The notes below the pieces were generated by a model that saw only the letters and a list, made by a program, of their open reading frames with translations, was not told the origin of the DNA and did not search any database. Of a stretch of 64,000 bases of DNA, positions 1 to 46,742 are shown in pieces. The stretch is from Desulfobacterales bacterium (lineage in GTDB: Bacteria; Desulfobacterota; Desulfobacteria; Desulfobacterales; G963662235): contig OY759308.1 of the NCBI GenBank assembly GCA_963662235.1, positions 2,043,545 through 2,107,544 of the forward strand, in the 5' to 3' direction. Numbering within the stretch: the first letter of the stretch is position 1; each line of letters opens with the position of its first letter. The position numbers and the translations under genes were made by a program.

Positions 1-3000
1 AAGGAGGTTCTCCAAAAAATGCATTTATTGTACTATCACTATAAAATACTTCTTGTGTACCTGTGCTATCTGGCACACCTGTAATTTGAAGTTTTGGATA
101 AATTATAATTGTAAATGGAGTAGTAGTAGCAATCGCATTATTAACATCTTTTGCTTTTATTATAATATTAGTGATTGTGCTATCTTCTAAAGGTGTTCCT
201 GATATTACGCCTGTTTGAGTGTTTAAGGTAAGACCACTATTGAGTGCTACATTCCCTACAAAATAGGTATAAGGGGGCTCGCCAAAAAATGCACTTATTG
301 TAGTGTCACTATAAAAAGCTGATACTGTTCCGGTACTATCAACACTACCTGTAATCTGAAGCTTTGGATAAATTATAATTGTAAATGGAGTAGTGCCAGC
401 TACTGCATTATTAATATCTTTTGCTTTTATTACTATATTAGTTACCGTATCTGCTAAGAGAGGTGTTCCTGATATTAAGCCTGTTTGAGTGTTTAAGGTA
501 AGTCCGCTATTTAACGCTACCTCTCCTACAAAATATGTATAAGGAGGCTCACCAAAAAATGCATTTATTGTGTCGTCACTATAAAAAGCATCAACTGTTC
601 CTGTACTATCTACATTACCTGTAATCTGAATCTTAGGATATATAATAATTGTAAATGGAGTAGTGCCAGCTACCGCATTATTAACATCTTTTACTTTTAT
701 TATTATATTAGTGATTGTGCCATCTAATAAAGGCGTGCCTGATATTACACCTGTTTGAGTGTTTAATGTAAGACCACTATTTAGTGCAATCTCCCCTACA
801 AAATATGTATAAGGTCTTTCGCCAAAAAATGCATTTATTGTACTATCACTATAAAAAACTTCTTGTGTACCTGTGCTATCTACATTTCCTGTAATTTGAA
901 GCTTGGGATAAATTATAATAGTAAATGGAGTTGTACCATCTACCGCATTATTAACATCTTTTGCTTTTATTATGATATTAGTGACTGTACTGTTCTGTAA
1001 AGGTGTACCTGATATTACGCCTGTTTGAGTGTTTAAGGTAAGGCCACTATTTAAATCTACATCCCCTACAAAATAGGTATAAGGGGGCTCACCAAAAAAT
1101 GCATTTATTGTAGTGTCACTATAAAAAGCTGAAACTGTTCCTGTACTATCTACACTACCTGTAATTTTAAGCTTTGGATAAATTACAATTGTAAATGGAG
1201 TGGTGATAGCTTCCGCATTATTAACATCTTTTACTTTTATTATAATATTAGTGATTGTGCTATTCTTTAAAGGCGTACCTGATATTAAACCAGTTTGAGT
1301 ATTTAATGTAAGACCGCTATTTAACACTACCCCCCATACAAAATAGGTATAAGGGGGCTCTCCAAAAAATGCGTTTATTGTAGTGTCACTATAAAAAGCT
1401 GAAACTGTTCCTGTGCTGTCTACATTTCCTGTAATTTGAAGCTTTGGATAAATTATAATTGTAAATGGAGTAGTCTCAGCTACGCACCTATTAACATCTT
1501 TTGCTTTTATTGTTATATTAGTGATTGTTCCATCTGATAAAGGCGTTCCTGATATTACGCCTGTTTGAGTATTTAATGTAAGACCACTATTTAATGTAAC
1601 CTCCCCTACAAAATATGTATATGGAGACTCGCCAGAAAATGCACTTATTGTGCTATCACTATAAAAAGCCGAAACTGTTCCTGTGCTATCTACATTTCCT
1701 GTAATTTGAAGTTTTGGATAAATTACAATTGTAAATGGAGTGGTGATAGCTTCCGCATTATTAACATCTTTAGCCTTTATTATAATATTAGTGACTGTAC
1801 TATCCTTTAAAGGCGTACCTGATATTAAACCAGTTTGAGAGTTTAAGGTTAGTCCACTATTTAACGCTACTCCCCATACAAAATATGTATAAGGAGGCTC
1901 GCCAAAAAATGCATTTATTGTACTATCACTATAAAAACCATTAACTGTTCCTGTACTATCAGCATTTCCTGTAATTTGAAGCTTTGGATAAATTATAATT
2001 GTAAATGGAGTTGTTTTGGCTGTTGCTCTATTAACATCTTTTACTTTTATTATAATATTAGTGACTGTGCTATTTTTTAAAGGTGTACCTGATATTAAAC
2101 CAGTTTGAGTATTTAATGTAAGACCGCTGTTTAACGCCACTTCCCCTACAAAATATGTATAAGGAGGCTCACCAAAAAATGCGTTTATTGTAGTGTCACT
2201 ATAAAAAGCCGATACTGTTCCTGTGCTATCTACATTACCTGTGATTTCAAGCTTGGGATAAATTATAATTGTAAATGGAGTTGTGTCTGCTACCGCATTA
2301 TTAACATCTTTTGCCTTGATTACGATATTAGTGATTGTGCTATCTTCTAAAGGTGTTCCTGATATTTCACCTGTTTGAGTGTTTAATGTAAGGCCACTAT
2401 TTAAATCTACATCCCCTACAAAATAGGTATAAGGAGGCTCACCAAAAAATGCATTTATTGTAGTGTCACTATAAAAAGCACCAACTGTCCCTGTAGTGTC
2501 AGCATCTCCTGTTATTTCGAGTTTTGGGTAAATGATAATCGTAAATGGAGTTGTACCTACTATTGTATCATTAACATCTTTTGCCTTGATTACGATATTA
2601 GTGATTGTGCTATCTTTTAAAGGTGTTCCTGATATTTCACCTGTTTGAGTGTTTAAGGTTAGTCCACTGTTTAAAGCTATATCCCCTACAAAATATGTGT
2701 AAGGAGCTTCTCCAAAAAATGCTTTTATTGTAGTGTCACTATAAAAAGCTGAAACTGTCCCTGTACTGTCTGGCTGACCTGTAATTTGAAGTTTTGGGTA
2801 AATTATAATTGTAAATGGAGTTGTGCCTGCTGTCGCTCTATTAACATCTTTAACTTTTATTATAATATTAGTGACTGTACCCTCTAATAAAGGTGTACCT
2901 GATATTGCACCTGTTTGAGTGTTTAATGTAAGACCGCTGTTTAAAGCCACATCTCCTACAAAATATGTGTAAGGAGGCTCGCCAAAAAATGCATTTATTG

Positions 3001-6000
3001 TAGTGTCACTATAAAAAGCTTCAACTGTTCCTGTACTGTCTACATTACCTGTAATTTGAAGCTTTGGATAAATTACAATTGTAAATGAAGTAGTGCTAGC
3101 TTCTGCATTATTAACATCTTTTGCTTTTATTATTATATTAGTGACTGTGCTATTCGAGAGAGGCGTTCCTGATATTTCGCCTGTTTGAGTGTTTAATGTA
3201 AGACCGCTGTTTAACGCCACTTCCCCTACAAAATAGGTATAAGGAGGCTCACCAAAAAATGCATTTATTGTTGTGTCACTATAAAAAGCCGAAACTGTTC
3301 CTGTGCTATCAACACTGCCTGTAATCTGAAGTTTAGGATAAATTAGAATCGTAAACGGTATACTTTCTGCTATGGCATTATTGACGTCTATCGCCTTTAT
3401 TATTAGATTAGTTACTGTAGAATCTTTTAAAGGTGTGCCAGATATTGCCCCTGTTTGAGTGTTTAATGTTAGTCCGCTATTTAACGCCACATCCCCCATA
3501 GAATATGTGTAAGGAGGCTCGCCAAATAAAGCTTTAATGTTATTATCACTATAAAAAGCTGAAACTGTTCCTGTACTATCAATATTTCCTATGATTTGAA
3601 GCTTTGGATAAATTATAATCGTAAATGGCGTTGTACCCGCTACGCACCTATTAACATCTATAGCTTTTATCACTATATTAGTGATTGTCCCCTCTGATAA
3701 AGGCGTTCCTGATATTAAGCCTGTTTGAGTGTTTAAGGTTAGCCCGCTGTTTAACGCTACATCTCCTACAAAATAGGTGTAAGGTAATTCGCCAGAAAAT
3801 GCATTTATTGTACTATCACTATAAAAAGCCGAAACTGTTCCTGTGCTATCAACACTGCCTGTAATTTCAAGCTTGGGATAAATTATAATAGTAAATGGAG
3901 TGGTCTCTGCTTTTGCATTATTAACATCTTTTGCTTTTATTACGATATTAGTAATTGTTCCATCTAATAAAGGCGTACCTGATATTACGCCTGTTTGAGT
4001 GTTTAATGTAAGACCACTATTTAACGCTACATCCCCTACAAAATATGTATAAGGGGGCTCGCCAAAAAATGCATTTATCGTACTGTCACTATAAAAACCA
4101 TTAACTGTTCCTGTACTGTCAGCATTTCCTGTAATTTGAAGCTTTGGATAAATTATAATCGTAAATGGAGTTGTTTCTGCTGTCGCTCTATTAACATCTT
4201 TTACTTTTATTATAATATTAGTGACTGTGCTATTTTCTGAAGGCGTTCCTGATATTACACCTGTTTGAGTATTTAAGGTTAATCCACTGTTTAAGGCTAC
4301 ACCTTCAATAAAATATGTATAAGGTTTTTCCCCAAAAAATGCATTTATTGTAGTGTCACTATAAAAAGCATCAACTGTTCCTGTACTATCAACACTGCCT
4401 GTAATTTGAAGCTTTGGATAAATTATAATCGTAAATGGCGTTGTACCCGCTACGCACCTATTAACATCTATAGCTTTTATTATAATATTAGTGATTGTTC
4501 CATCTGATAAAGGCGTTCCTGATATTGAGCCTGTTTGAGTGTTTAAGGTTAGCCCGCTGTTTAAAGCTACATCTCCTACAAAATATCTATAAGGTGACTC
4601 GCCAGAAAATGCATTTATTGTACTATCACTATAAAAAGCACCAACTGTTCCTGTGCTATCAACACTGCCTGTAATTTCAAGCTTAGGATAAATTATAATT
4701 GTAAATGGTGTAGTTTCTGCTTTTGCATTATTAACATCTTTTACTTTTATTATAATATTAGTTACTGTGCCTGATAGAAGAGGTGTACCAAACACATCAC
4801 CTGTTTGAGTGTTTAATGTAAGACCGCTGTTTAACGCTACACCTTCAATAAAATATGTATAAGGTGCCTCGCCAAAAAATGCATTTATCGTACTATCACT
4901 ATAAAAACCATTAACTGTTCCTGTACTGTCAGCATTTCCTGTAATTTGAAGCTTTGGATAAATTATAATCGTAAATGGTATAGTCTCTGCTATAGCATTA
5001 TTAACATCTTTTGCTTTTATTATTATATTAGTGATTGTACCATTTGATAAAGGCGTGCCTGATATTTCGCCTGTTTGAGTGTTTAATGTTAGACCGCTAT
5101 TTAAGGCTATATCCCCCATAAAATATGTGTAAGGGGGTTCGCCAAAAAATGCATTTATTGTAGTGTCACTATAAAAAGCTGAAACTGTGCCTGTGCTATC
5201 AACACTTCCTGTAATTTGAAGCTTTGGATAAATTACAATTGTAAATGGAGTAGTCCCCTCTACGCACCTATTAATATCTATAGCTTTTATCACTATATTA
5301 GTGATTGTAGCAGCTGATAGAGGAGTACCTGATATTAAACCTGTTAAAGTGTTTAAGGTTAGCCCGCTGTTTAACGCCACTTCTCCTACAAAATATCTAT
5401 AAGGTGACTCGCCAGAAAATGCGTTTATTGTACTATCACTATAAAAAGCACCAACTGTTCCTGTGCTATCTACACTGCCTGTGATTTCAAGCTTAGGATA
5501 AATTATAATTGTAAATGGTGTAGTTTCTGCTTTTGCATTATTAACATCTTTTACCTTTATTACGATATTAGTGATTGTGCCATTCTTTAAAGGCGTACCT
5601 GATATTACGCCTGTTTGAGTGTTTAATGTTAGACCACTATTTAACGCTACCTCCCCTACAAAATAGGTATAAGGGGGCTCGCCAAAAAATGCATTTATCG
5701 TACTATCACTATAAAAGCCATTAACTGTTCCTGTACTGTCAGCATTTCCTGTAATTTGAAGCTTTGGATAAATTATAATTGTAAATGGGGTTGTTTCTGC
5801 TTTAGCATTATTAACATCTTTTGCTTTGATTATAATATTAGTTACCGTATCTGCTAAGAGAGGCGTGCCTGATATTACGCCTGTTTGAGTGTTTAATGTA
5901 AGTCCACTATTTAACGCCACATTCCCTACAAAATATGTGTAAGGAGGCTCTCCAAAAAATGCGCTTATTGTAGTGTCACTATAAAAAGCATCTTTTGTAC

Positions 6001-6870
6001 CTGTACTATCAACACTTCCTGTAATTTGAAGCTTGGGATAAATTACAATTGTAAATGGCGTTGTGCCCGCTACGCACCTATTAACGTCTATAGCTTTTAT
6101 TATAATATTAGTGATTGTACCGTCCTGTGAAGGCGTACCTGTAATATCACCTGTTTGAGTGTTTAAGGTTAGTCCACTATGTAATGAAACAACATCTCCT
6201 ACAAAATATCTATAAGGTAACTCACCAGAAAATGCTTTTATTGTAGTGTCACTATAAAAAGCACCCTCTGTCCCTGTGCTATCAACACTGCCTGTGATTT
6301 GAAGCTTTGGATAAATTATAATTGTAAACGGTATACTTTCTGCTGTAGCATTATTAACATCTTTTACTTTTATTACTATATCAGTTACTGTACCTGCTAA
6401 ACGAGGTGTGCCTGATATTTTTCCTGTTGAAGTGTTTAATGTAAGACCGCTATTTAAGGCTCCCCCTCCCATAGAATATGTATAGGGACCTTCCCCGCCA
6501 ATAGCTTGAAGATTGCCATCACTATCACTATAGAAACCGTCAACTGTTCCCGTGCTGTCAGCACTTCCTGTAATTTGAAGCTTTGGGAAAATAATAATTG
6601 TAAATGGATTAGTCTCAGCTATCGCACCATTAACATCTTTTGCTTTTATTTTGATATCAGTGAATGTACCATCCTGTGAAGGCGTACCTGTAATCTTGCC
6701 TGTTGCAGGGTCTAATTTTAACCCGATAGGCAGTGGCACATCCCCTACAAAATATGCATAAGGAGACTCACCATCAAAAGCTTGAATAGTGCTGTCACTA
6801 TAAAAACCGTAAACTGTACTTCTATTATATGGCGACCCTGTAATTTGAAGTTTTGGATAAATTATTAATG
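1..6870 (-). repeat. Tandem array of 270-bp (90-codon) coding repeats inside the giant CDS
   Basis: The marker gtaaa(t/c)gg recurs at 111, 381, 651 ... 6051 (23 anchors, exactly 270 bp apart), then at 6324 (+273), 6600 (+276) and 6870 (+270). All offsets are multiples of 3. Confidence 0.95.
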
Positions 6871-9800
6871 TAAAAGGAGCTGATGAGATTGTTCTGCCAT
6901 TTTGATCAGTAATAGAGATAACAATATTGCTCACTGTACCATAAGTTGTAGGCGTACCAAAAACAGAACCAGCACTTAATCCAGCAGGTAAATTTTTGTT
7001 ACTAAATACATATGGAGTCTTACCTCCTGAAAAATTAGGGGAACTATTACTATAATAAGCACCTTGTGTTAACGTATTATCAGAATCGGCAGGAACTCCA
7101 CTAACTTTAAGCTTGGCATATATCGTCATTTTATATGCTGGAAGTTCTGCACTCCTATTTGATTGGTCTGTAGCTTTTATAATAATATCATCTGATGTTC
7201 CAGCTATACCTTCTTTAATAGTGCCCGATATTATACCTGTAGTGCTATTAATAACTAAATTTTTTGGTAAAGTACTGTTCTTATCAGAGTATGTAAAACT
7301 ATTACTACTATCCTCTGTAGCAAAACCTGTAGCCTTAATACCACTATAACTAAGTGAATCGCCCTCATAAGCTTCAAGAGGCGGAGAACCTGTAATACTT
7401 AGTTGATACACCTTAATGCTAATCGCAGAAGTAAGCTTATAATTACCCGCACTATCTACCACTTTAAATATTATACTATTAAATTCACCTTGTTTTTTGA
7501 GAGTTCCAGCAACCTGACCATTTGAATCTAAAGATAAACCTGTAGGCAAAATACCACTATACAATGAAAAAGTGTATGGAGATGTTCCGCCAGTAGCTAT
7601 TATGTTAAAAGTAGAATAAGTATATCCTACATAACCATACGCAGTGGCAGAAGGATTAAAAGAAACAGACAGTGCTGTAGTAGTAGTAGTCGAAGTAGAA
7701 GAACTACCATTCCCACTACTGGTAGTAGTAGCAGTTGTATCGGTTGAAGTAATAGCATCATCTTGAGATGTGCCTCCTAACCCATCAACTACAACAACAT
7801 CGTCACTATAGACATTATCATCTGGTATGATTATATAATTATCTTCTGCCCCTCCCTTAGCACCAACTTCAGTCACTTGTGGTGCTGATGTCGGACTTGC
7901 AGAAGGGGTACTCTCTTTAGTTTCAGGTTTTTTAGTAACATCATAAAAAGAGGTAGAAACTAACTCTTTACCAACACTATTTTTGCCTTTTACAGCTTTA
8001 ATTCTGATTAAAACATTCCCTTCAAACTCATCGGGAACACTAATTTTAAAACTATTACATCTACTCCAGCTAACACCACCATCTAAACTTTTCTCATATA
8101 GAGTAATATTTTTAAAACCATCTACAGGAGCAAATCTTAAATATCTTCCAGCTTCATTATGCTCTATCTCAATTGGAGCCAAAATGGCTTTGGTAAAAGG
8201 GTTGCTTTCAGTAATAGTCCCTTCGCCATTTGTATTCCTTATTGCACGTTTAACTAAAAAAACAGTGCCATCAATATTGCCAGCATCTATCGTATAGTTA
8301 CCCGTATCTTTCCAACTATTACCTTTATCAAGACTATATTTATAAAAATAGGGAGAATCACTTTTTGAAAGCGGTGCAAAAACAAGAGTATTTGTTTCAT
8401 CATCGACACTAACTATCTCTGGTCCATCAGGTTTATTAAGAAAAAGAGAAGATTTTGAAATAAGACCGTTTGTGTTTTTATCTTTCTTTGCTTTAACACG
8501 AATCTCAACAAAACGCGTATAATTACCAACATTTATCTTGTTGCTGGTAGCATCTTGCCAAGTTTTGTCATTACTAAACCTATATTGATATGATGCAGCG
8601 TCAGGATAATTCTTTAAAAATTTAAACTCTAATATATCCTTTTCATCATCCTCTTTTAAAATTTCTACGGTTTCAGGACAATCAAGACTGCTTTTCCGTA
8701 CTTCTACAGAAACAATATCAAAACTGCTTCTCTTTAAATTATCTAAAGCACTAACTTTAAAAACTAAACGTTTACTACTATTAAATTTTGGGGCTATAAA
8801 TGAACAAGATAGATTATTGCTTTCTTCTGAATTTAGCTCTACCAAATCGTCAGGGTCATCAAAGACTTGACTCCATATTGTCTGCACACTCTCTCCAGAA
8901 TTTAATCCTTTTTTATGTACAGCTTTTAGAACGACTTTAACGTCACTCTCTATCCCTGTTAAATTCTCTCCTGCACTTATATAATTATAATTAGTTACAT
9001 TTTTTAAACTTATAGAAGAGGGGTCGTCCTTTTTACTTTTCTTCTTATCTTCTTTTTTGTTTTTTTTGTTCTTCTCTTCCTTTTTCTTAGCATTATCAGA
9101 TAGTAACGACACATTATTAACATTAAGACCGCTCTTATTCCTTTTGTCATTTAAAACTCTATAAATAGACCTTGCAAGTTCTTGCTTAAGAATAAAATCG
9201 GTAATAATGGCTTTTTTGCCATCACGTTCAATGGATTTCATCAAAGTGTTAAAAAAATCTATTATGCAACTGCTTAAACTCTGTTTACCGTCATTTTGAT
9301 TAAGTGCATAGTCAGAAAAAGCATAAAGTAATACTCCATACTCTTTATTGCTATTTTTTGTGCTTTTTAAAGAAGGACTAAAAGGGTCATAAGGAATAGC
9401 GCTTACAACATTAAAACTTTCATCACTTGAAAACGCACTGGAAAAAAGAGTTACAGTCTCTTCTATGTTTTTTTGTCTAAACCCTCTTTCCATTGCAATA
9501 AGCTTTTGCACCACCAATTCAGTTAATGGCGTAACAGCTACAGAATCACCAGAAACAATGTTTGAAACAACTGAACGCAAAGAAAAATCAGCAGGTAAAA
9601 AATACTTCACACCTGATACAGCATCTACAATTCCATCAGGAAAAGTCGCTTCAATTAAAAATGGCTTGTTTGCATATTCAGGCGGCAAAGAAAGGAAAAA
9701 ACCTCCTTTCTTGTCTGTCATGGTTGTGGCATCCTCTTTTGTATCATATAAGAGCTTACCATCTCTTATGCCACGTATAGTAATGTTGGCGAGGTTGCCT

Positions 9801-10081
9801 TTACCAAAAGAGACTACACCACTAAAAAACAGTCTTTGTGGTTTTTTCTTCTTTTTGAGCGTTTTTGAACTGTTTTTTTTACTCGTTTTGTTTTTTTTTA
9901 AAGATTTATCGGAAATGGTTTTATCGTTTTTGGTTACAGAAGAAGTATTAGCAGAAGAATCTGCAGGTAGGGCATCACTTAAACTGATAACTAAAACAAC
10001 AAAACTAAATAAAGTGGAAATAAAAAGTTTATTAAATAGTTGATTTAATTTTATAAAATTTTTTTTGAGGGCACTATGCAT
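1..10081 (-). CDS. Giant secreted repeat protein (adhesin-like); 5' end complete, 3' end runs off the left window edge. N-terminal signal/anchor, beta-sandwich modules, Ser/Thr linker, then >=29 He_PIG / dystroglycan-type cadherin-like Ig repeats
   Basis: Hand translation from ATG at 10081..10079 (MHSALKKNFIKLNQLFNKLFISTLFSFVVLVISLSDA...) stayed open down to ~4970. The same phase still reads ...GTQEVFYSDSTINAFFGEPP at 2..61. It is missing from the ORF track because no stop lies in the window. Unit consensus: PFTIIIYPKLQITGSxDSTGTxxAFYSDxTINAFxGExPYTYFVGxVALNSGLTLNTQTGxISGTPLxxGTITNIxIKAKDVNNAxAET. Confidence 0.85.
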   Translation of the reverse strand, partial: MHSALKKNFIKLNQLFNKLFISTLFSFVVLVISLSDALPADSSANTSSVTKNDKTISDKSLKKNKTSKKNSSKTLKKKKKPQRLFFSGVVSFGKGNLANITIRGIRDGKLLYDTKEDATTMTDKKGGFFLSLPPEYANKPFLIEATFPDGIVDAVSGVKYFLPADFSLRSVVSNIVSGDSVAVTPLTELVVQKLIAMERGFRQKNIEETVTLFSSAFSSDESFNVVSAIPYDPFSPSLKSTKNSNKEYGVLLYAFSDYALNQNDGKQSLSSCIIDFFNTLMKSIERDGKKAIITDFILKQELARSIYRVLNDKRNKSGLNVNNVSLLSDNAKKKEEKNKKNKKEDKKKSKKDDPSSISLKNVTNYNYISAGENLTGIESDVKVVLKAVHKKGLNSGESVQTIWSQVFDDPDDLVELNSEESNNLSCSFIAPKFNSSKRLVFKVSALDNLKRSSFDIVSVEVRKSSLDCPETVEILKEDDEKDILEFKFLKNYPDAASYQYRFSNDKTWQDATSNKINVGNYTRFVEIRVKAKKDKNTNGLISKSSLFLNKPDGPEIVSVDDETNTLVFAPLSKSDSPYFYKYSLDKGNSWKDTGNYTIDAGNIDGTVFLVKRAIRNTNGEGTITESNPFTKAILAPIEIEHNEAGRYLRFAPVDGFKNITLYEKSLDGGVSWSRCNSFKISVPDEFEGNVLIRIKAVKGKNSVGKELVSTSFYDVTKKPETKESTPSASPTSAPQVTEVGAKGGAEDNYIIIPDDNVYSDDVVVVDGLGGTSQDDAITSTDTTATTTSSGNGSSSTSTTTTTALSVSFNPSATAYGYVGYTYSTFNIIATGGTSPYTFSLYSGILPTGLSLDSNGQVAGTLKKQGEFNSIIFKVVDSAGNYKLTSAISIKVYQLSITGSPPLEAYEGDSLSYSGIKATGFATEDSSNSFTYSDKNSTLPKNLVINSTTGIISGTIKEGIAGTSDDIIIKATDQSNRSAELPAYKMTIYAKLKVSGVPADSDNTLTQGAYYSNSSPNFSGGKTPYVFSNKNLPAGLSAGSVFGTPTTYGTVSNIVISITDQNGRTISSAPFTLIIYPKLQITGSPYNRSTVYGFYSDSTIQAFDGESPYAYFVGDVPLPIGLKLDPATGKITGTPSQDGTFTDIKIKAKDVNGAIAETNPFTIIIFPKLQITGSADSTGTVDGFYSDSDGNLQAIGGEGPYTYSMGGGALNSGLTLNTSTGKISGTPRLAGTVTDIVIKVKDVNNATAESIPFTIIIYPKLQITGSVDSTGTEGAFYSDTTIKAFSGELPYRYFVGDVVSLHSGLTLNTQTGDITGTPSQDGTITNIIIKAIDVNRCVAGTTPFTIVIYPKLQITGSVDSTGTKDAFYSDTTISAFFGEPPYTYFVGNVALNSGLTLNTQTGVISGTPLLADTVTNIIIKAKDVNNAKAETTPFTIIIYPKLQITGNADSTGTVNGFYSDSTINAFFGEPPYTYFVGEVALNSGLTLNTQTGVISGTPLKNGTITNIVIKVKDVNNAKAETTPFTIIIYPKLEITGSVDSTGTVGAFYSDSTINAFSGESPYRYFVGEVALNSGLTLNTLTGLISGTPLSAATITNIVIKAIDINRCVEGTTPFTIVIYPKLQITGSVDSTGTVSAFYSDTTINAFFGEPPYTYFMGDIALNSGLTLNTQTGEISGTPLSNGTITNIIIKAKDVNNAIAETIPFTIIIYPKLQITGNADSTGTVNGFYSDSTINAFFGEAPYTYFIEGVALNSGLTLNTQTGDVFGTPLLSGTVTNIIIKVKDVNNAKAETTPFTIIIYPKLEITGSVDSTGTVGAFYSDSTINAFSGESPYRYFVGDVALNSGLTLNTQTGSISGTPLSDGTITNIIIKAIDVNRCVAGTTPFTIIIYPKLQITGSVDSTGTVDAFYSDTTINAFFGEKPYTYFIEGVALNSGLTLNTQTGVISGTPSENSTVTNIIIKVKDVNRATAETTPFTIIIYPKLQITGNADSTGTVNGFYSDSTINAFFGEPPYTYFVGDVALNSGLTLNTQTGVISGTPLLDGTITNIVIKAKDVNNAKAETTPFTIIIYPKLEITGSVDSTGTVSAFYSDSTINAFSGELPYTYFVGDVALNSGLTLNTQTGLISGTPLSEGTITNIVIKAIDVNRCVAGTTPFTIIIYPKLQIIGNIDSTGTVSAFYSDNNIKALFGEPPYTYSMGDVALNSGLTLNTQTGAISGTPLKDSTVTNLIIKAIDVNNAIAESIPFTILIYPKLQITGSVDSTGTVSAFYSDTTINAFFGEPPYTYFVGEVALNSGLTLNTQTGEISGTPLSNSTVTNIIIKAKDVNNAEASTTSFTIVIYPKLQITGNVDSTGTVEAFYSDTTINAFFGEPPYTYFVGDVALNSGLTLNTQTGAISGTPLLEGTVTNIIIKVKDVNRATAGTTPFTIIIYPKLQITGQPDSTGTVSAFYSDTTIKAFFGEAPYTYFVGDIALNSGLTLNTQTGEISGTPLKDSTITNIVIKAKDVNDTIVGTTPFTIIIYPKLEITGDADTTGTVGAFYSDTTINAFFGEPPYTYFVGDVDLNSGLTLNTQTGEISGTPLEDSTITNIVIKAKDVNNAVADTTPFTIIIYPKLEITGNVDSTGTVSAFYSDTTINAFFGEPPYTYFVGEVALNSGLTLNTQTGLISGTPLKNSTVTNIIIKVKDVNRATAKTTPFTIIIYPKLQITGNADSTGTVNGFYSDSTINAFFGEPPYTYFVWGVALNSGLTLNSQTGLISGTPLKDSTVTNIIIKAKDVNNAEAITTPFTIVIYPKLQITGNVDSTGTVSAFYSDSTISAFSGESPYTYFVGEVTLNSGLTLNTQTGVISGTPLSDGTITNITIKAKDVNRCVAETTPFTIIIYPKLQITGNVDSTGTVSAFYSDTTINAFFGEPPYTYFVWGVVLNSGLTLNTQTGLISGTPLKNSTITNIIIKVKDVNNAEAITTPFTIVIYPKLKITGSVDSTGTVSAFYSDTTINAFFGEPPYTYFVGDVDLNSGLTLNTQTGVISGTPLQNSTVTNIIIKAKDVNNAVDGTTPFTIIIYPKLQITGNVDSTGTQEVFYSDSTINAFFGERPYTYFVGEIALNSGLTLNTQTGVISGTPLLDGTITNIIIKVKDVNNAVAGTTPFTIIIYPKIQITGNVDSTGTVDAFYSDDTINAFFGEPPYTYFVGEVALNSGLTLNTQTGLISGTPLLADTVTNIVIKAKDINNAVAGTTPFTIIIYPKLQITGSVDSTGTVSAFYSDTTISAFFGEPPYTYFVGNVALNSGLTLNTQTGVISGTPLEDSTITNIIIKAKDVNNAIATTTPFTIIIYPKLQITGVPDSTGTQEVFYSDSTINAFFGEPP
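3541..6320 (-). repeat. Higher-order 810-bp (three-unit, A-B-C) repeat within the 270-bp array
   Basis: Sub-type markers recur every 810 bp. Type A (tacgcaccta tta) follows anchors 3621/4431/5241/6051. Type B (gtaatttcaagctt.gg...ctgcttttgcatta) is at 3891/4701/5511. Type C (ccattaactgttcctgtactgtcagcatttcct) precedes 4161/4971/5781. Confidence 0.85.
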
Positions 10082-10357
10082 ATTTTTTATACAAATATCT
10101 TTATATAAAATTTAAAAAACCATTCTATGATACAAGAATAGCCTTATTACTTCATTAATTGAAATATGGGATATAATCTAATCTGAAATTCTTTAAAAAA
10201 TCTTCAAAAAAAACGTTCAAAGCTTGATTTTTTACAAACATATATAAAAACAATCAAGTCTTTATATATGTTTTTTTGCGGTTTTTTTGCTTTTTTTTAT
10301 CCTCTTTTTCTTCAAGCTATAAATTATAAATATTTTATCTGCAAAAAAAGTTAACCG

Positions 10358-14295: not shown

Positions 14296-15975
14296 TTACA
14301 AACCGTACTTTTCATTTAAAAGCGTACGCAACATACTTCTGTATGATAGGACATTAGGCTCTAATTGCACAGCTTTTTTTAAACAAATAATAGCCTCTTT
14401 TTTCTTACCAAGACGCAAATAAATAGTAGATAAAATATTATAATAATAAGCGGTGTTGTAAGGTTTTAGTTCAATTAGTTTTTTAAAATAATGTAAAGAG
14501 TTTATATACATTTTTTTGTTAAAATAGATAACTCCAAGGTTGTTAAGAGAGTTTATATGATTAGGATCCATTAAAAGAACATTTTCATAACTTTTAATCG
14601 CTTTTTCAAAATTGTTAATATTATCAAATGCTACCCCTAAGTTATAATGGGCTAAAATATTATTTCTATTCCCTTTAATTGCACTTTTAAAATATTCAAT
14701 AGCCTTATTATACTTTTTATTCCTTAAAAAATAGAAGCCGAGATTGTTATAAACAGTATAAGTCTTAGGATTTACATCTAAAACTCGCCTAAAAAGTATA
14801 AGCTCATTTTGCCAATATTGTACTTGAAAAAAACTTATAACGGTAAAAAAGATAATAATGAAAAAAGATACTATTTTTAAAATTAAATCCTTTTTGTAAA
14901 ATTTTTTAACTACAGCTTCTCCCCCCCAAACTATTAAAACAAAAATACCTATTAATGGGATATAAGAGTATCTATCAGCCATTCCTTGTTCTCCAACCTT
15001 AACAAGACCAATAACAGGCAATAGAGTTCCAATATAAAACGACCAAGACACAAAAAGGCAAGGTGCTTTTTTTATATATTTAATTCCTAAATAAAAAGGC
15101 ATTAAAAAAAATATTGAACACAAAACAAGTTGCAAAATAGAAATGTTTTGAGGAGATAGGTAAAAAACGGTCAAATCGAAGGGAAAGATAGCTTTTTTTA
15201 TATAAAGAAAATAAGATAGAAGTGCATTCTTAAATCTAAATAATAATGAATAATACTTCAAAGAAGCAACAGCTCCAAAGTTTTTTTGTGCAATTATTGT
15301 TATTATAGAAGAGAAAATAGTTAGTAAAAAAAAAGGCAACTTTTCGTATATTAATTTAAAAGATATTTTTCTCTTAAGCGGATAGTAATCAAGTAATAAA
15401 AAAATAAAAGGCATTGTAACCAACATAGATTTGGACATAAGACTCAATATAAATGAGAAAAGCGATATAAAATATCTTTTTAAGCTATTTGTTTTCGCAT
15501 AGTCCAAATAATAGTATATACAAAGAAAACCAAAAAAAGCACTAAGCAGGTCTTTTCTACCAGATATCCACGCTACAGATTCTATATGCATAGGATGAAT
15601 TGCAAAAAGAATTGCTACTAAAAAAGAGTTATAAACAGAACCTGTAAGTTTGCAGAAAAGAAAAAAAAGTAAAAGAGAGTTTAAAATATGAAAGAAAATA
15701 TTTGTTATATGATAGCTATGAACGTTAAGCCCGCTAATTTGATAATCAAAAAGATATAAAAGCCAAGTTACAGGATGCCAATTTGCTGCATAAGTAGATT
15801 TAAAAGCCCAAGAGATTCCTTCTAAAGTAAAACCTTTTTTAATATTTTCTATATTGTCGTGTATATGGGAAAAATCGTCATAAACAAAATTGTAATTATA
15901 AACCTGAAAGTAGATAATAAACGTAAAAGCTACAATTAAAAAACTTAAAACTATTTTCTTATTTTGAATAGACAT
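14296..15975 (-). CDS. Polytopic membrane protein with C-terminal TPR repeats (PMT_2/TMTC-like GT-C glycosyltransferase family)
   Basis: 559 aa; many N-terminal TM helices with an FVYDDFSHIHDN motif near TM1; C-terminal TPR units (YNNLGFYFLRNKKYNKAIEYFKSAI, HYNLGVAFDNINNFEKAIKSYENVL ...). Confidence 0.6.
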   Translation of the reverse strand: MSIQNKKIVLSFLIVAFTFIIYFQVYNYNFVYDDFSHIHDNIENIKKGFTLEGISWAFKSTYAANWHPVTWLLYLFDYQISGLNVHSYHITNIFFHILNSLLLFFLFCKLTGSVYNSFLVAILFAIHPMHIESVAWISGRKDLLSAFFGFLCIYYYLDYAKTNSLKRYFISLFSFILSLMSKSMLVTMPFIFLLLDYYPLKRKISFKLIYEKLPFFLLTIFSSIITIIAQKNFGAVASLKYYSLLFRFKNALLSYFLYIKKAIFPFDLTVFYLSPQNISILQLVLCSIFFLMPFYLGIKYIKKAPCLFVSWSFYIGTLLPVIGLVKVGEQGMADRYSYIPLIGIFVLIVWGGEAVVKKFYKKDLILKIVSFFIIIFFTVISFFQVQYWQNELILFRRVLDVNPKTYTVYNNLGFYFLRNKKYNKAIEYFKSAIKGNRNNILAHYNLGVAFDNINNFEKAIKSYENVLLMDPNHINSLNNLGVIYFNKKMYINSLHYFKKLIELKPYNTAYYYNILSTIYLRLGKKKEAIICLKKAVQLEPNVLSYRSMLRTLLNEKYGL

Positions 15976-34444: not shown

Positions 34445-34734
34445 TAGGGGCGGGGTTGCCCCGCCATTTCAATATTCTGCCATTTCCGTATAATTTGTTT
34501 TTTTATTGGGCACGGCACGCCGTGCCCCTACCTTGTTCACCATTTCAATATAATTTTCTTACCATTTTGATATAAATTGTTTTACCGTTGGGCTACACGC
34601 ATTTCCTGATGATAATTCCATATTGATTTGATTAAATACCATAAAGATACAAAATCTTGTAGAGACAGGTCGCGACCTGTCTCTACGGGAAAATATAATT
34701 TTCAACACAAGGGCGGGTTTGGTCTAGTCCCTAC
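34445..34734. repeat. Cluster of GC-rich hairpins / palindromes with GTAGGGG / CCCCTAC-type flanks in an AT-rich spacer
   Basis: Hairpins at 34449-34465 (7 bp) and 34508-34527 (GGGCACGG-CACG-CCGTGCCC); a perfect 28-nt palindrome GTAGAGACAGGTCGCGACCTGTCTCTAC at 34669-34696; a weaker GGGCGGG...GTCCCTAC at 34711-34734. The motif ccatttcaatat recurs after hairpins 1 and 2. Confidence 0.8.
34447..34467 (+). terminator. Candidate intrinsic terminator of glyQS (GC hairpin 1)
   Basis: GGCGGGG-TTG-CCCCGCC (34449-34465) lies 20 nt after the glyS stop, but the following tract (atttcaatatt) is only weakly U-rich. Confidence 0.4.
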
Positions 34735-34747
34735 GGTTATGATTGCG

Positions 34748-34765
34748 AGATCTTTGCACATAATG
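34748..34765 (+). mobile_element. Solo terminus (copy H) of the repeat family
   Basis: agatctttgcacataatg, 49 nt upstream of the DUF4143 ATPase start. This is the only copy whose inner side faces the adjacent gene. Confidence 0.55.
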
Positions 34766-34814
34766 TTATTGTTTTAGCCTTGCAAATTTAATTTAAGATG
34801 TTAAATATGCAAGG

Positions 34815-35987
34815 ATGTATAAACGGACACTCAAACATAAAATCATCGAAAAACTAAAGCAGAACCCTGCTGTTGCAATTCTTGGACCTCGTCAGGTTGG
34901 CAAAACCACCCTCGCTTTAGAAATTGGTAAAAATATACCTTCTGTATATCTTGACCTTGAAAATTTGGAAGATTTGCAAAAACTGCAAGACCCTACACAC
35001 TATCTTGAACTCCATTCAGATAAACTTGTTATTTTAGACGAAATTCAGCGTTACCCTAATTTATTTATGTCTTTGCGTGGAGTTATCGATGCAAGAAGAA
35101 GAGAAGGCAGGGGCAACGGAAAATTTCTTGTGCTTGGCTCTGCTTCAAACGACCTTTTAAAACAAAGCTCTGAAAGCCTTGCAGGACGTATAAGCTATTT
35201 AGAACTTAGCGGACTTAAGCCTTATGAAATTAAAAGCAAAAACCATAAAGATATTGTTAAGCTTTGGATACGAGGAGGATTTCCCAACAGTTACCTTGCA
35301 TCTAATGATTTAATAAGTGATGAGTGGCGTAAAGATTTTATTAAAACATATTTAGAAAGAGATATACAAGCACTTGGCTCCAGAATCCCTGCTACAACGC
35401 TTATGAGATTTTGGACAATGCTGGCACACTCTCAAGGAGAGCTGTTTAATGCTTCAAAACTTGCAAGCTCCCTTGGAGTAGAAAGTGTTACAGTGAGTCG
35501 TTATTCAGATTTAATGGCAGACCTTTTGCTCGTTAGAAGATTAGAGCCTTGGTTTGGTAATATTAAAAAAAGATTAGTAAAATCTCCAAGAGTTTACATA
35601 AGAGACAGTGGAATTGTTCATACACTCCTTCAAATACCAAACTATGAAAAATTATTGGGTCATCCCATACTTGGGAAAAGCTGGGAAGGGTTTATAATTG
35701 AAAAAATTATCTCGAGCCTCCCTTCTGGTATAAATCCGTTTTTTTATAGAACTTCAGCAGGAGCAGAAATAGACTTAGTATTAGAGCTTGGACTGAATAA
35801 TTATTGGGCAATCGAAATTAAGCATAGCAAAACACCCTCTCTTCAAAAAGGCTTTCATATCGCTTGTGAAGATTTAAAGGTAAAACGCAAATTTGTTATT
35901 TATACAGGGGAAGAAGGTTTTTCGATTGGAAACAAAACAACTGCAACATCTCTTTTGCTTTTTTTAAAAGAGCTGAAAAATATTTAA
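34815..35987 (+). CDS. AAA+ ATPase (AAA_14 + DUF4143 architecture)
   Basis: 390 aa; Walker A GPRQVGKTT, Walker B VILDEIQ; the C-terminal half resembles a DUF4143 / restriction-endonuclease-like fold. Confidence 0.75.
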   Translation: MYKRTLKHKIIEKLKQNPAVAILGPRQVGKTTLALEIGKNIPSVYLDLENLEDLQKLQDPTHYLELHSDKLVILDEIQRYPNLFMSLRGVIDARRREGRGNGKFLVLGSASNDLLKQSSESLAGRISYLELSGLKPYEIKSKNHKDIVKLWIRGGFPNSYLASNDLISDEWRKDFIKTYLERDIQALGSRIPATTLMRFWTMLAHSQGELFNASKLASSLGVESVTVSRYSDLMADLLLVRRLEPWFGNIKKRLVKSPRVYIRDSGIVHTLLQIPNYEKLLGHPILGKSWEGFIIEKIISSLPSGINPFFYRTSAGAEIDLVLELGLNNYWAIEIKHSKTPSLQKGFHIACEDLKVKRKFVIYTGEEGFSIGNKTTATSLLLFLKELKNI

Positions 35988-36009
35988 TCACTCTAAAAAA
36001 AGAACTTAT

Positions 36010-37443: not shown

Positions 37444-37636
37444 AGACCTTTGCACATAATATTTTTATGGAAAAATAATGTTTTTGAAAAAATATTAACT
37501 TTTGATATTTTTTTACCAAAACTTCTAAAACCCCTATAAAGACTTACGCTCTCTTTTGCTTTTATTTTGGGTTCGACGTATAAAAATACTACTTCACCAC
37601 AAAATAAAAACAAAATAGAGCTATGTGCAAAGGTCT
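37444..37636 (+). mobile_element. Archetypal long-form copy (I, 193 bp) of the repeat family with a perfect 8-bp flanking duplication
   Basis: Termini AGACCTTTGCACATA / TATGTGCAAAGGTCT (15/15 complementary). Flanked by CATAATCA at 37436-37443 and again at 37637-37644. Confidence 0.92.
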
Positions 37637-37672
37637 CATAATCATCTGCTATATTTAAATAAAGTGCAAAAA

Positions 37673-42677: not shown

Positions 42678-43439
42678 TTAATCCTCTTTAGGTTTACTAA
42701 ATATATTACCCCAAACTCTAAGCTCAATTAGTGGCATAATTTCACTATCTGTCTCTATAATTAATTTTTCATAATATCTGCCAACTTTTTTAGCTCTATT
42801 TTTAATGACAACATAGCAAGATTTAACTCCCAACTCTTTTTCCCAATCTATCTTCTCACTTTTTTTATCTGGGACTGCAAGCAAACTATCTTCCCTTACT
42901 GTATTATCAATCATAACATCTATATTGTTACCGGGTTTCGCACTAATTTTCTTAACGTTAAAAACATATTCTGCTTCAGGAGTTATTTTTATAACTTGAG
43001 ATATCTCCTGCCCTACAGCGCCTATTAATCTTATCCTCGCAGGAGTAACACTATAAACTTTTTTTACTTTACCAAATATTTTAATAAAAAGTTTATTTTC
43101 GTCATTCGATTTAATTTCGATATTATGAGTTACTGTATTCCCACCTTCATAGCTTGTATCGACTTTTATGCCTATCTCTCCAACTTCTCCCGGCATAATA
43201 TTCTTTGAATAATTAGCGGTCATACATCCACATCCTGTAATTACTTCATAAATAATTAAAGGTGCTTTCCCTTTATTGACAATGATAAACTTTTTTTCGA
43301 CCAAACTCCCTTCCGGCACTGCTTCAAATTGATATTCAGTTTCAGGTAAAAAAGCTTTAGGTTTTTTCTGCAAATCTTCTGCAAACGCAAAAGAGACCAT
43401 TGAATAAAAAAACAAAAAAATAAGTGATATTTTCTTCAT
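42678..43439 (-). CDS. DUF1573 domain protein (secreted)
   Basis: Signal peptide; NKGKAPLIIYEVITGCGCMTANYSKNIMPGEVGEIGIKV matches the DUF1573 signature (..CGCT..PG..G.I). Confidence 0.6.
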   Translation of the reverse strand: MKKISLIFLFFYSMVSFAFAEDLQKKPKAFLPETEYQFEAVPEGSLVEKKFIIVNKGKAPLIIYEVITGCGCMTANYSKNIMPGEVGEIGIKVDTSYEGGNTVTHNIEIKSNDENKLFIKIFGKVKKVYSVTPARIRLIGAVGQEISQVIKITPEAEYVFNVKKISAKPGNNIDVMIDNTVREDSLLAVPDKKSEKIDWEKELGVKSCYVVIKNRAKKVGRYYEKLIIETDSEIMPLIELRVWGNIFSKPKED

Positions 43440-43629
43440 AACTATTATAAACCTTAATATTTAAATTGAGTTTCCTTTTTGTCTAATACTAAAAAATTAC
43501 TCTAAATTTTTTAGAAAAACTTTTCTTTAAAAACAATTAAAAAATCCTTTACAATAAAAGTGTTTGCACAATACTTAATTTTTTATACAAAAAATTCATT
43601 TTTAGTACAAAAATAAATAAAAAAAACTT

Positions 43630-45177
43630 ATGAAACACAAAACCTATATTATCCTTTTTTTCTTAATCTTTTTTACTCTTAAAAATATAACGCCTGTATA
43701 TTCTGGAGTTTCACAAGAAGAATTAATTTTTTTACCAATTAAAACAGAAACTTTAGATAAATTTGAAAAAGAATTTTATGAGGCTGTTTTTATAGAATCC
43801 CTTGCTAAAAAAAACACTGTTTATTCTGGACCCAAGGTGTTGGAAAAAATAGATAAGATAGGTAGTTCTAAACAAATATGTACAAGTAAAGACTGTTTAA
43901 GACAAGTCGCATTAGAGTTTAATGGATCACTTATAGGACAAGCTAAAATAGAAAAAGATAACCAAAATTTGTATACGATATCGTTTATAGTTAAAGATAT
44001 TTTTGAAGACAAAACTATATACAGTAAAACCTCCTTTTGTGATAATTGTAATAAGGCAGATATCTCACAAAAAATAAAAACACTATTTTTAAAAGAAGAG
44101 GAAAACGTTGATGCAGGAGTGTTAAATATAGAAACTGAACCTCAAAAAGCTATAATTACAATCTTTTCTAAAAACAAAGAAGTAAAAACAGAAATTTCAC
44201 CTTCCCTAATAAAGCTTAGACCTGACAATTATAAAGTTATTATAAAAAAAAACAAATACATCCCTTATGAGCAAGAAGTCCTTATCGAAAAAGGTAAAAT
44301 GAAAAATATAACTATTGAGCTAAAACAAATATTAGGGCGAATTTTAATAATTTCCGACGAAGACGGCGCTGATGTTTTTATAAATGGCGAAAAAAAAGGC
44401 ACAACACCTTATAAAACAAAAGAATTACCAGCAGGTGAATACGAAATAAAAGCACAAACTAAAAACAAATATGGCTATGAAAAAGTATTATTAGAAAAAA
44501 ATGGCGAAACCCAAAAGATACAAATTAAGCTAAAATCTAAAAAAGAAAAAATAATAAAAAAAGAGAGAAAGGATAGTGATTTTAATTTTAATTTTGGGAT
44601 AAATGGCAGACTTGATTTTTCTTATGATTTTGTAAAAACTGGGGATGAAAGAGAGCTTATAACACCATTTGGTACAGATTTAAGAATGTTTGTAGGACAA
44701 AAAAATGGAATCAATATCGGAATAGGTTACTTCATCGGAAGAGCTACTTACGACAAAATAAATACCAATCTTAGTTCTAATGAGTATGTTAGTGAAGGCG
44801 ATATAGATAAAAAAGAGATTAATTTTTATCTTGGCAAACATATCCAAAATAAAAACAATAGTTTTTATTGGTACCTATCGTACACAAATGAAGAACTTAC
44901 AGGCAAATACAAAATTGAAAACTCTAATATCAGAGATGAATATGAAACTGAAGTCAAAGGAGCAGGCATAGGAATAGGTTTTTGGACAGTATTGAATCAA
45001 AAAAGTTGTTTAGGTCAAAGTCTCTCTTACGGAGTAGATCTTAAATATTTAAAATATGAATATGAAAAATTTAAATACAAAAGCAAAAATTCATCAGAAG
45101 AACACAATATAGATATTAGTAATGAAGATGAACAAAATATTTTTGTATTAAGTATATTTACAGGAATTGCATTTTAA
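43630..45177 (+). CDS. Outer-membrane protein: FlgO/TolB-N-like N-domain + two PEGA domains + C-terminal beta-barrel-like region
   Basis: Signal peptide; PEGA-like segments (NIETEPQKAIITIF..., DGADVFINGEKKGTTPYKTKELPAGEYEIKA..GYE); C-terminal alternating aromatic pattern ending ...FTGIAF. Confidence 0.6.
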   Translation: MKHKTYIILFFLIFFTLKNITPVYSGVSQEELIFLPIKTETLDKFEKEFYEAVFIESLAKKNTVYSGPKVLEKIDKIGSSKQICTSKDCLRQVALEFNGSLIGQAKIEKDNQNLYTISFIVKDIFEDKTIYSKTSFCDNCNKADISQKIKTLFLKEEENVDAGVLNIETEPQKAIITIFSKNKEVKTEISPSLIKLRPDNYKVIIKKNKYIPYEQEVLIEKGKMKNITIELKQILGRILIISDEDGADVFINGEKKGTTPYKTKELPAGEYEIKAQTKNKYGYEKVLLEKNGETQKIQIKLKSKKEKIIKKERKDSDFNFNFGINGRLDFSYDFVKTGDERELITPFGTDLRMFVGQKNGINIGIGYFIGRATYDKINTNLSSNEYVSEGDIDKKEINFYLGKHIQNKNNSFYWYLSYTNEELTGKYKIENSNIRDEYETEVKGAGIGIGFWTVLNQKSCLGQSLSYGVDLKYLKYEYEKFKYKSKNSSEEHNIDISNEDEQNIFVLSIFTGIAF

Positions 45178-45180
45178 ACA

Positions 45181-46212
45181 ATGAAAATACTAAAAAGATT
45201 AAAAATATTATTTATTGTTTTTTTAATGTTTAATTTTAGCTGTGCTAAACAAACTATTTTTAAAAATAAGTGCAATGTAACTCAAAAAAAACCTAAATGG
45301 GCAAACAGCACTAATATGATAGAAATTCCTGGCTATTATGTCGGTGTTGGATATGCCGAAAATAAAAAATTTGAAGAGGCAAAATCAAAAGCTATAAGGA
45401 ACCTTTCAGAAAAAATATCTGCGGATATAAAAAGTGAAGGGGAAATATCGGAAGAACAAAAGTTAAATAGTTCTTTTAAAAAAGAAGCAAAATTTAAAAT
45501 AAATATAAGCTCCAATATTAAGCTTTATGATTTAAAACAAGATTCACAATGGATAGATGAAAACTGCAATGTTTGGGTAAGATTTAAAATAGAAAAAAAC
45601 ATTGCTCACAATATATTAAAATTTCAAGAAGCTGAAGATTTATATAAAATCGCAAAAGAGTCAAAAAATGGTTTAGAGACAAGAATAAGCAGCATTAAAA
45701 AAGCTTTAAATATTATTGAAACAATAGATTTTTCAACTCTTAGAACAAATAATAAAAAAAAATTTTACATAACGATTTATAGGAATCTAAAAGAAGATTT
45801 AGAGAAAATAATACAGGGAAGAGAAGTTGTATATTTTGTAAAATCACCTAATGAATCATTCAATAACTTATCAGAAGCTTTAATAGCTAAACTCATAAAC
45901 GATAATAAAGGTGGTTTATACGAAAAAAAAAACAACTGCGAAAAAATTGAAACTTGTTTTTTAATTGCAAGAGAAAATCTGGCAAAAAAAATGGTTATAG
46001 TTAAGATAGATTCTAAGATAAAGGATGACGGTATGCTTTGTATGGGCATTCTAAATATAGACATATATCCATACGATGTTAAAAGCGAAAAAATATTAAA
46101 AAAACCTTTTAATATAAATCGCAAACTTTTTTCTTATAACAAAAACTCTTTTAACTGGGAAAATACAATTAAAGAAGAGTTAACAAAAGAAGATGTTTTA
46201 TACACTTATTAA
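45181..46212 (+). CDS. LPP20/FlgP-like putative lipoprotein
   Basis: Signal sequence ending ..FNFSC; YYVGVGYAENKKFEEAKSKAIRNLSEKISADIKSEG resembles the LPP20 family; starts 3 nt after the upstream stop. Confidence 0.45.
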   Translation: MKILKRLKILFIVFLMFNFSCAKQTIFKNKCNVTQKKPKWANSTNMIEIPGYYVGVGYAENKKFEEAKSKAIRNLSEKISADIKSEGEISEEQKLNSSFKKEAKFKINISSNIKLYDLKQDSQWIDENCNVWVRFKIEKNIAHNILKFQEAEDLYKIAKESKNGLETRISSIKKALNIIETIDFSTLRTNNKKKFYITIYRNLKEDLEKIIQGREVVYFVKSPNESFNNLSEALIAKLINDNKGGLYEKKNNCEKIETCFLIARENLAKKMVIVKIDSKIKDDGMLCMGILNIDIYPYDVKSEKILKKPFNINRKLFSYNKNSFNWENTIKEELTKEDVLYTY

Positions 46213-46214
46213 AA

Positions 46215-46742
46215 ATGAAAAAAATAATATTTATAATAGCCATTTTTGCTTTAAGCAATTCATCCTGTGACAGCGGTTCATCAGCTGAAGATATAGCGCA
46301 AAATAACCCTGAAATTGGAACAACTAACAGCACTTATGCAACTGCTCTTGATAATTCGAATCTTACTTTTTCGTCAACTTCAGGGAATAATGCCAATTGG
46401 TGCACAACAACATCTCAATATTACGCAGGAGGAAGCTCATTAAGAAGTGGTTTAATTGGAAACTCTCAAACAAGCTGTATCCAAACAACAATTCCAAGAG
46501 CAGGAACTTTTAGCTTTTATTGGAAAGTCTCTTCCGAAAACTCTCGTGATTATTTGAAATTTTATTATAACAATTCTGTTCAAAATACTATTTCAGGAAC
46601 AACAAGTTGGGCACAAAAAACATATAATTATACGGGTTCTTATGCCGCCACATTAAAATGGTGTTATATTAAAGATTCTTCAATATCTCAAGGGAGTGAT
46701 GCTGGCTGGATTGATGATGTTCAGTTTACTGCTTCTAATTAA
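46215..46742 (+). CDS. Small secreted/lipo-protein with a jelly-roll (CUB/MAM-like) domain pattern
   Basis: Signal sequence ending ..SNSSC; ...GTFSFYWKVSSENSRDYLKFYYNN...WAQKTYNY..ATLKWCYIKDSSISQGSDAGWIDDVQF. Confidence 0.4.
   Translation: MKKIIFIIAIFALSNSSCDSGSSAEDIAQNNPEIGTTNSTYATALDNSNLTFSSTSGNNANWCTTTSQYYAGGSSLRSGLIGNSQTSCIQTTIPRAGTFSFYWKVSSENSRDYLKFYYNNSVQNTISGTTSWAQKTYNYTGSYAATLKWCYIKDSSISQGSDAGWIDDVQFTASN

Follow-up and report, generated by a model that had tools for sequence, protein, structure and literature searches.

A giant Desulfobacterales gene of tandem He_PIG domains whose array probably exchanges sequence between units in register

Giant repetitive surface proteins are common, but little is understood of them, and unit-by-unit comparisons between close strains are few. 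In SraP, an adhesin of Staphylococcus aureus, cadherin-like modules serve as a stem from which a ligand-binding module projects, and in the pilE/pilS, vlsE and msp2 systems surface variation arises by gene conversion. The ice-binding adhesin of Marinomonas primoryensis is a type I-secreted repeats-in-toxin (RTX) adhesin. Region II of that protein consists of ~120 tandem immunoglobulin (Ig)-like repeats, which are described as identical 104-residue copies (PMC4083281). Here we describe a tandem array of 270-bp units in the 5′ part of a giant open reading frame (ORF) on the minus strand of a Desulfobacterales contig (OY759308.1, assembly GCA_963662235.1, positions 2,043,545 to 2,107,544); by the window we mean this whole 64,000-nucleotide stretch. 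We put at roughly 70% the probability that this DNA codes for an N-proximal stalk belonging to a giant fibre protein, probably on the cell surface, whose units exchange sequence in register. Between strains ~1% apart, the array keeps unit number, register and unit identity, yet it diverges several-fold faster than its flanks, a picture that contrasts with the identical-repeat, copy-number-variable model of some adhesins.

Tandem Repeats Finder reported one array in the window, at positions 1-6879, with a period of 270, 25.4 copies, 80% matches and 1% indels. A sequence-only reading of this DNA had proposed an exact 270-bp register marked by GTAAAYGG at 111+270n, with deviations only in the three promoter-proximal units and no frame-breaking indel, and all of this was borne out. 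Against an expectation of 2.7, the window contains the marker 24 times, a count reached in 0 of 100 shuffles, and the marker positions follow 111+270n for n=0-22 with a single exception at n=11 (position 3081), where the sequence reads GTAAATGA, with one mismatch. Beyond n=22 the spacing is +273, +276 and then +270 to position 6870, where the marker reads GTAAAAGG, also with one mismatch; the deviating units are 91 residues long. The minus-strand frame begins at an ATG at 10081, downstream of a stop at 10112-10114, and runs to position 1 through 3,360 codons without a stop before continuing past the window edge. Because the array also extends past that edge, the 23 units counted by the sequence-only reading are a lower bound.

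The frame (1-10081, with all coordinates of its parts likewise on the minus strand) has a simple order of parts. Its translation begins with a basic stretch followed by a hydrophobic segment (residues ~19-35; window 9974-10081), which looks like a Sec-type signal peptide or a membrane anchor. A unique N-terminal region follows, extending to residue 802 (7676-9973) and containing a Lys-rich linker and about four ~75-residue repeats, with no Pfam family over threshold. Next come three divergent He_PIG domains (residues 803-1074; 6860-7675; PF05345 at 72.9 bits over three stretches), which share 31-38% identity with the array units, and three transitional 91-residue units (residues 1075-1347; 6041-6859). 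The array proper comprises 22 full units, u03-u24, each of exactly 270 bp or 90 residues (residues 1348-3327; 101-6040; PF05345 at 53.6 bits), and ends at the window edge with the first 33 residues of another unit (1-100). Within the window, this single ORF holds at least 28 He_PIG domains. Inside the giant frame, two antisense ORFs (7983-8297 and 9465-10043) were regarded as spurious.

One 270-bp unit is one 90-residue He_PIG domain, with a predicted Ig-like or cadherin-like beta-sandwich fold. Matches to the Pfam family PF05345 (He_PIG, 'putative Ig domain') reached 48.7, 53.6 and 72.9 bits, the cut-off being 24, and the units contain the He_PIG motif L-x-x-G-L-x-L...G-x-I-S-G-T-P; Pfam assigns them to He_PIG, not to Cadherin. 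AlphaFold2, given two consecutive units and the window units as the alignment, returned an all-beta model with a predicted local distance difference test (pLDDT) score of 94.3 and a predicted template modelling (pTM) score of 0.81. The top matches of this model in a Foldseek search of the PDB were the cadherin-like modules of SraP (4m00 and 4m03; E about 1e-9, 24% identity), followed by cadherins, protocadherins and other tandem Ig proteins. The strict 270-bp register follows from this correspondence, since one unit is one structural domain that must be whole, in-frame and foldable. Residues D11, D22, E31, N44, N50, D75 and N77 are invariant and lie mostly in predicted loops, with D22 closing a short strand; they are candidate calcium ligands in the predicted structure.

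We compared the 22 full units of the window with one another. Pairwise DNA identity ranges from 74 to 94% with a mean of ~82% (~18% difference), the closest pairs being u04/u10 and u08/u11 at 94%, and amino-acid identity has a mean of 81.8% and a minimum of 64.4%. DNA identity is higher between units separated by a lag of three (84.9%) or six (83.9%) than at other lags (~82%), because u04-u11 (3611-5770) form a weak three-unit, 810-bp higher-order repeat. Entropy at codon positions 1, 2 and 3 is 0.25, 0.27 and 0.71, the third being about three times the others, and the Nei-Gojobori method gave a synonymous divergence (dS) between units of 0.56 (range 0.13-1.07), a nonsynonymous divergence (dN) of 0.118 and a ratio of 0.21. 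We conclude from the high between-unit dS and the third-position entropy that what conserves the scaffold is purifying selection acting on the protein, and not a recent homogenisation of DNA. The low synonymous divergence between units that would mark ongoing homogenisation was not found.

Substitutions between units cluster at a few codons, as the sequence-only reading had claimed, and every variant peptide that it listed (EG/KD/VN/VG/VS, SQD/LLA/LKN/LSA/LSN and AKAE/CVAG/AIAE) was found in the units. Invariant positions make up 44 of the 90 amino-acid columns, where a uniform spread of substitutions predicts 31 (maximum 42 over 10,000 simulations), and the index of dispersion, 1.86, lies above the simulated 99.9th percentile (1.58). 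Eleven columns (9, 17, 23, 32, 40, 55, 62, 63, 64, 80 and 82) account for 48% of pairwise amino-acid differences, and pooled between-unit dN/dS is 0.88 for these hypervariable codons and 0.12 for the other 79. Nine of the eleven fall in predicted loops (Fisher p=0.049), and the remaining two, columns 80 and 82, occupy alternate positions of a short strand. Rate heterogeneity of this degree is usual for any folded domain, with its constrained core and free loops. The variable sites therefore read, on the predicted structure, as mostly loop positions under relaxed constraint, possibly diversifying: a dN/dS of 0.88 between units, or of 0.56 between strains, fits relaxed constraint as well as diversification. 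The earlier description of diversified surface loops is plausible as far as these data go; a pooled dN/dS of 0.88 does not demonstrate positive selection. A 19-mer that had been called near-invariant is exact in only nine units, although 18 carry it with no more than one mismatch and 25 with no more than three.

Synonymous diversity across the full units (101-6040) is itself uneven. Four-fold sites range from 0 (T15, P60 and T67) to 0.68 (G46), and other codons in blocks 13-15, 19-21, 60, 67-68, 77 and 86-90 of the unit are also fixed in 22 of 22 units. These blocks of invariant DNA border the hypervariable codons; codon bias, local conversion sweeps and selection at the DNA level are candidate causes.

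Units within this one genome are not independent and appear to be mosaics of one another. A homoplasy statistic of the pairwise homoplasy index (PHI) type was 0.888, compared with 0.959 +/- 0.02 in permutations, none of 2,000 of which was as low, and a unit's nearest neighbour switches among its three thirds. Patches smaller than a unit recur in several units, such as an RCV cassette in u05, u08, u11 and u19 and an LLADTV patch in u03 and u23. Exact identity between two units never extends beyond 83 bp; runs reaching 30 bp number 107, and no run reaches 100 bp. Such short exact runs fit short conversion tracts together with an unchanged unit number. The proposal that the array is a scaffold in concerted evolution is thus upheld in part: the patchy exchange and a long-timescale signature relative to the metagenomic protein P0133 (below) agree with it, and the dS of 0.56 speaks against homogenisation being under way.

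The corresponding locus of a sister strain was located by exact look-up of the neighbouring SPOR-domain protein, in ENA assembly ERZ21862600, contig_2 (1,604,105 bp). The gene call for the orthologue on that contig has 19,513 residues (58.5 kb), the first 3,214 of which are covered by the locus L002:10962-20603; arithmetic from the coordinates places the end of the gene ~240 nt from the start of the contig. Two short-read Logan contigs (SRR34447573 and SRR34447553) are 100% and 99.96% identical to the window. Window and sister are collinear, with an identical unit count over 24 comparable positions, and the protein alignment contains no more than two indels, each of one codon: the unit that spans residues 1257-1347 has 91 residues in the window and 90 in the sister, where u05 has 89. 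The array had been supposed prone to changes in length; with equal unit numbers over 24 positions in two strains, no such change was seen.

Sequence divergence between the two strains is another matter, amounting to 7.7% in the array versus about 1% in the flanks, where 500-bp bins are 97.6-99.8% identical. In the same bins, divergence is raised in two blocks of the array, at 4000-6499 (87-95% identity) and at 500-2499 (84-94%), and the DNA between them (2500-3999) is ~98% identical to the sister. The contrast holds within the gene, for which the unique N-terminal part has a dS of 0.059 and a dN of 0.007 and the array a dS of 0.225 and a dN of 0.042. Set beside their positional counterparts, u09-u15 and u23 show 97-99% identity, compared with ~82% for paralogues, and so have retained their individuality, whereas u05 and u17-u21 are only 83-88% identical to theirs, barely exceeding random pairs of paralogues. 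Differences between the strains are patchy, 47% of the gaps between neighbouring differences being 3 nt or less against 21% expected, and dN/dS pooled at the 11 hypervariable codons is 0.56. In one case a whole unit appears to be involved: u19 and u11 are 95.6% identical in the sister and 86% identical in the window.

Many of the alleles that distinguish the strains are present elsewhere in the array. Among 432 inter-strain differences, both alleles pre-exist at the same column in other units for 91%. For 37 patches with at least four clustered differences, the exact sister haplotype was found in another visible unit in 18, compared with a mean of 10.9 and a maximum of 17 over 500 draws in which sites were taken independently from the column pools; the visible units represent about a tenth of the likely donor pool. 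Taking together the block-wise divergence, the mosaicism within one genome, the haplotype test and the case of u19 and u11, we regard in-register gene conversion between units as the most likely source of the excess divergence of the array.

The account that we favour can be put as follows. Hydrophobic residues of the core, like the Gly, Pro, Asp and Asn residues that form turns, are under strong purifying selection (dN/dS about 0.1), and a dozen positions, mostly in predicted loops, are close to neutral. The units are of such an age that over half of their synonymous sites differ, and no homogenisation is under way. Through gene conversion they would trade short patches in register, and now and then a whole unit, so that pre-existing variants are reshuffled between array positions. 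Such patch exchange would make the array diverge between strains about seven-fold faster than its flanks with no change in unit number. The product would be a long extender or adhesive fibre; in the sister strain, roughly 200 domains of ~4 nm each would give a length approaching a micrometre.

Several observations weigh against this account. Both alleles pre-exist for 83% of differences even in the conserved units, an internal control that makes allele pre-existence a weak discriminator; the figure of 91% therefore mostly mirrors tolerated changes and is given no weight here. Although the haplotype test reaches significance, its null is high, and on the predicted structure the enrichment of variable codons in loops over strands is marginal at p=0.049. 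Allele import from other strains could give the same pattern of blocks. About 85% of the array falls beyond the window, as do the C-terminus and any domain for anchoring or ligand binding, so function and localisation are read from architecture only. No secretion-system genes were found among the ORFs of the adjacent 54 kb on the 5′ side. For type I secretion in particular (ABC, that is ATP-binding cassette, transporter, membrane fusion protein and TolC-like protein), none of the genes is present in those 54 kb, where the only ABC proteins are an iron-siderophore-type importer pair and a stand-alone ATPase.

If allele import is taken seriously, the array might owe its state to divergence only: ancient duplications followed by independent purifying selection, with no exchange between units and with the blocks imported as alleles from distant strains. 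A between-unit dS as high as 0.56 is what such a history would leave, u09-u15 and u23 have kept their individuality at 97-99% identity to their positional orthologues, and allele re-use hardly separates conserved from divergent units. Nevertheless, the homoplasy test indicates mosaicism among units of one genome, patch haplotypes recur in other units beyond the independent-site expectation, u19 of the sister is a near copy of u11, and for every pair of units identity within the array exceeds identity between genera; we consider this history quite unlikely. The data are of a kind in which assembly can also mislead, since tandem repeats are a known source of error, and array length, unit order or the patches themselves might come from collapsed or expanded repeats or from mis-mapped paralogous reads. 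Each of the two short-read Logan contigs breaks off 192 nt into the gene, and the sister contig ends ~240 nt past it. However, two independent assemblies have their units in the same order, one to one, across 24 units, with conserved units 97-99% identical, and the frame stays intact for 10 kb in the window and for 58.5 kb in the sister; moreover, units that differ by ~18% and have exact runs of at most 83 bp in common allow reads to be placed uniquely. We therefore regard an artefact of assembly or polishing as very improbable.

A different possibility accepts in-register exchange and gives it an adaptive purpose, with the array acting as a self-templated library whose loop 'cassettes' are shuffled under diversifying selection, for instance to escape phage, predators or host recognition. 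In its developed form, the ~200-unit array would be its own cassette library, the blocks of invariant DNA that flank the loop codons would guide in-register micro-conversions, and strain-specific surface mosaics would result; were this speculative scheme true, combinatorial surface variation with donors in the same ORF would be a new route to diversity, one in which unit number, frame and fold stay fixed. We hold the adaptive reading to be doubtful, as we do its implication that the hypervariable codons are positively selected and not merely unconstrained. At codons 17, 62, 82, 80, 55, 32, 64 and 63, nonsynonymous diversity does exceed the array-wide synonymous diversity (ratios 1.07-1.64), 53% of inter-strain nonsynonymous differences fall in 12% of codons, and entire loop patches have been swapped between strains; yet those codons were picked post hoc for their variability, pooled dN/dS at the hypervariable codons is 0.88 between units and 0.56 between strains, not above 1, and recombination invalidates simple dN/dS tests. 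The hypervariable codons are indeed bordered by invariant DNA, although with lengths of only 9-19 nt these flanks are short for homologous recombination, and ~40 scanned ORFs include no dedicated recombinase or reverse transcriptase.

The unique N-terminal region stands apart from the array. Residues ~480-800 (window 7676-8640, minus strand) contain its four or so ~75-residue repeats, with the signature 'Y.YS.D.G..W ... V.IR.KA'; the 'Y.YS.D.G..W' repeats are conserved in two metagenomic proteins, P0001 and P0133, which are the only homologues found for the region (35% identity for P0001). A relaxed Pfam scan of the region gave nothing over threshold and a sub-threshold hint of CHB_HEX_C at 18.5 bits. 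An AlphaFold2 model of residues 81-480 from a two-sequence alignment had a pLDDT of 41.5 and was discarded. Near the start of the gene, an A9 homopolymer occupies 9891-9899 (minus strand; codons ~61-64, 180 nt into the ORF), and both short-read Logan contigs (L001 and L003) end directly after it, at 9890; the tract could be a site of slipped-strand phase variation or merely an assembly break.

The gene lies in ordinary chromosome with a GC (guanine plus cytosine) content of ~30%. Window genes include those for arginyl- and glycyl-tRNA synthetases, fliF/G/H/I, a sigma-54 activator, pyruvate:ferredoxin oxidoreductase, thiC, EF-G and PBP2, and a few other surface-protein genes. The latter, all on the minus strand and all putative surface or envelope proteins, encode a Fil_haemagg_2 repeat protein (61444-63603), BatD (58811-60514), an Lcl_C domain protein (47650-48162) and a DUF1573/HYDIN-like Ig protein (42678-43439). 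The closest glycyl-tRNA synthetase beta subunits (GlyS) outside the organism's own group, from metagenome-assembled genomes (MAGs) of Desulfobacterales or 'Pseudomonadota', are 48-50% identical, and the lineage is therefore deep-branching. An Rfam scan of the window gave no RNA family, and no dedicated recombinase or reverse transcriptase was found among the ~40 ORFs scanned. A diversity-generating retroelement was considered and rejected: the scanned ORFs include no reverse transcriptase, and the variation lies between paralogous units, not between a template and a variable region.

Away from the array, two segments of the window have no counterpart in the sister: 34579-35995, which holds a gene for an AAA_14/DUF4143 ATPase (34815-35987), and 43493-46742, a three-gene plus-strand block (43630-46742) that includes a PEGA-domain protein. 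A further difference concerns a 195-nt element, of which this part of the window has a single copy (37444-37638). The sister has two (L004:12199-12393 and 15191-15383), in opposite orientations and flanking the sigma-70/Metal_resist gene cluster.

Relatives of the array units are numerous at the level of the family and few at close range. A profile search of 1.84 billion representative proteins gave 12,411 matches at E<=0.001, of which 738 reached E<=1e-30, many of the latter having thousands of residues and 10-47 matched domains. A word-indexed protein search with two units returned only two weak matches, at 35-40% identity, and by this search the units are an isolated subfamily within He_PIG. 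Two scans of GTDB genome contigs, one with the unique N-terminal region and the other with the unit alignment, gave no match.

The metagenomic proteins P0133 and P0001 (the latter labelled 'MAG Alphaproteobacteria bacterium'), share the architecture of the window protein throughout, in the order basic/hydrophobic N-terminus, Lys-rich linker, 'Y.YS.D.G..W' repeats, divergent He_PIG domains and 'YPKL...FTIII' array. P0133 carries the unit junction 'FTIIIYPKL', which is also present in the window array, and independently shows a three-unit higher-order period as well, its unit lengths cycling through 89, 90 and 92. In contrast with the exact 90 of the window, however, its units vary from 89 to 92 residues, and the exact 90-residue register is therefore not a rule of the family. 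Units of P0133 are 57.7% identical among themselves and 35-52% identical to those of the window (mean 44.4%, maximum 52.2%). Every window unit is nearer to other window units than to those of P0133, which on sequence comparison would reflect either concerted evolution or independent amplification, on a long timescale.

Known systems share individual properties with this locus. Like pilE/pilS, vlsE and msp2, it appears to involve short pre-existing variant patches copied in register into a surface-protein gene; unlike them, it has donors and recipients in the same ORF and no silent cassettes, and it gives no sign of high-frequency or programmed switching, the events here separating strains ~1% apart. 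The predicted model of the units finds its best structural match in the cadherin-like modules of SraP, although SraP, a serine-rich-repeat protein of a Gram-positive bacterium, has two such modules, not hundreds. With the M. primoryensis adhesin it has in common that a giant surface protein gains its length from tandem Ig-like extender domains of ~100 residues (PMC4083281), whereas the identical copies described there contrast with units that here are ~82% identical, have a dS of 0.56 and belong to a different domain family. In size, the sister orthologue of 19,513 residues far exceeds the 150 best-scoring profile matches, the longest of which has 7,396; at 58.5 kb, the gene takes up about 3% of a genome of roughly 2 Mb, a scale at which it probably dominates the surface biology of the organism. 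The protein is of a known kind, a giant repetitive He_PIG surface fibre, and stands out by its size and by what the comparison of strains reveals of the way the array evolves.

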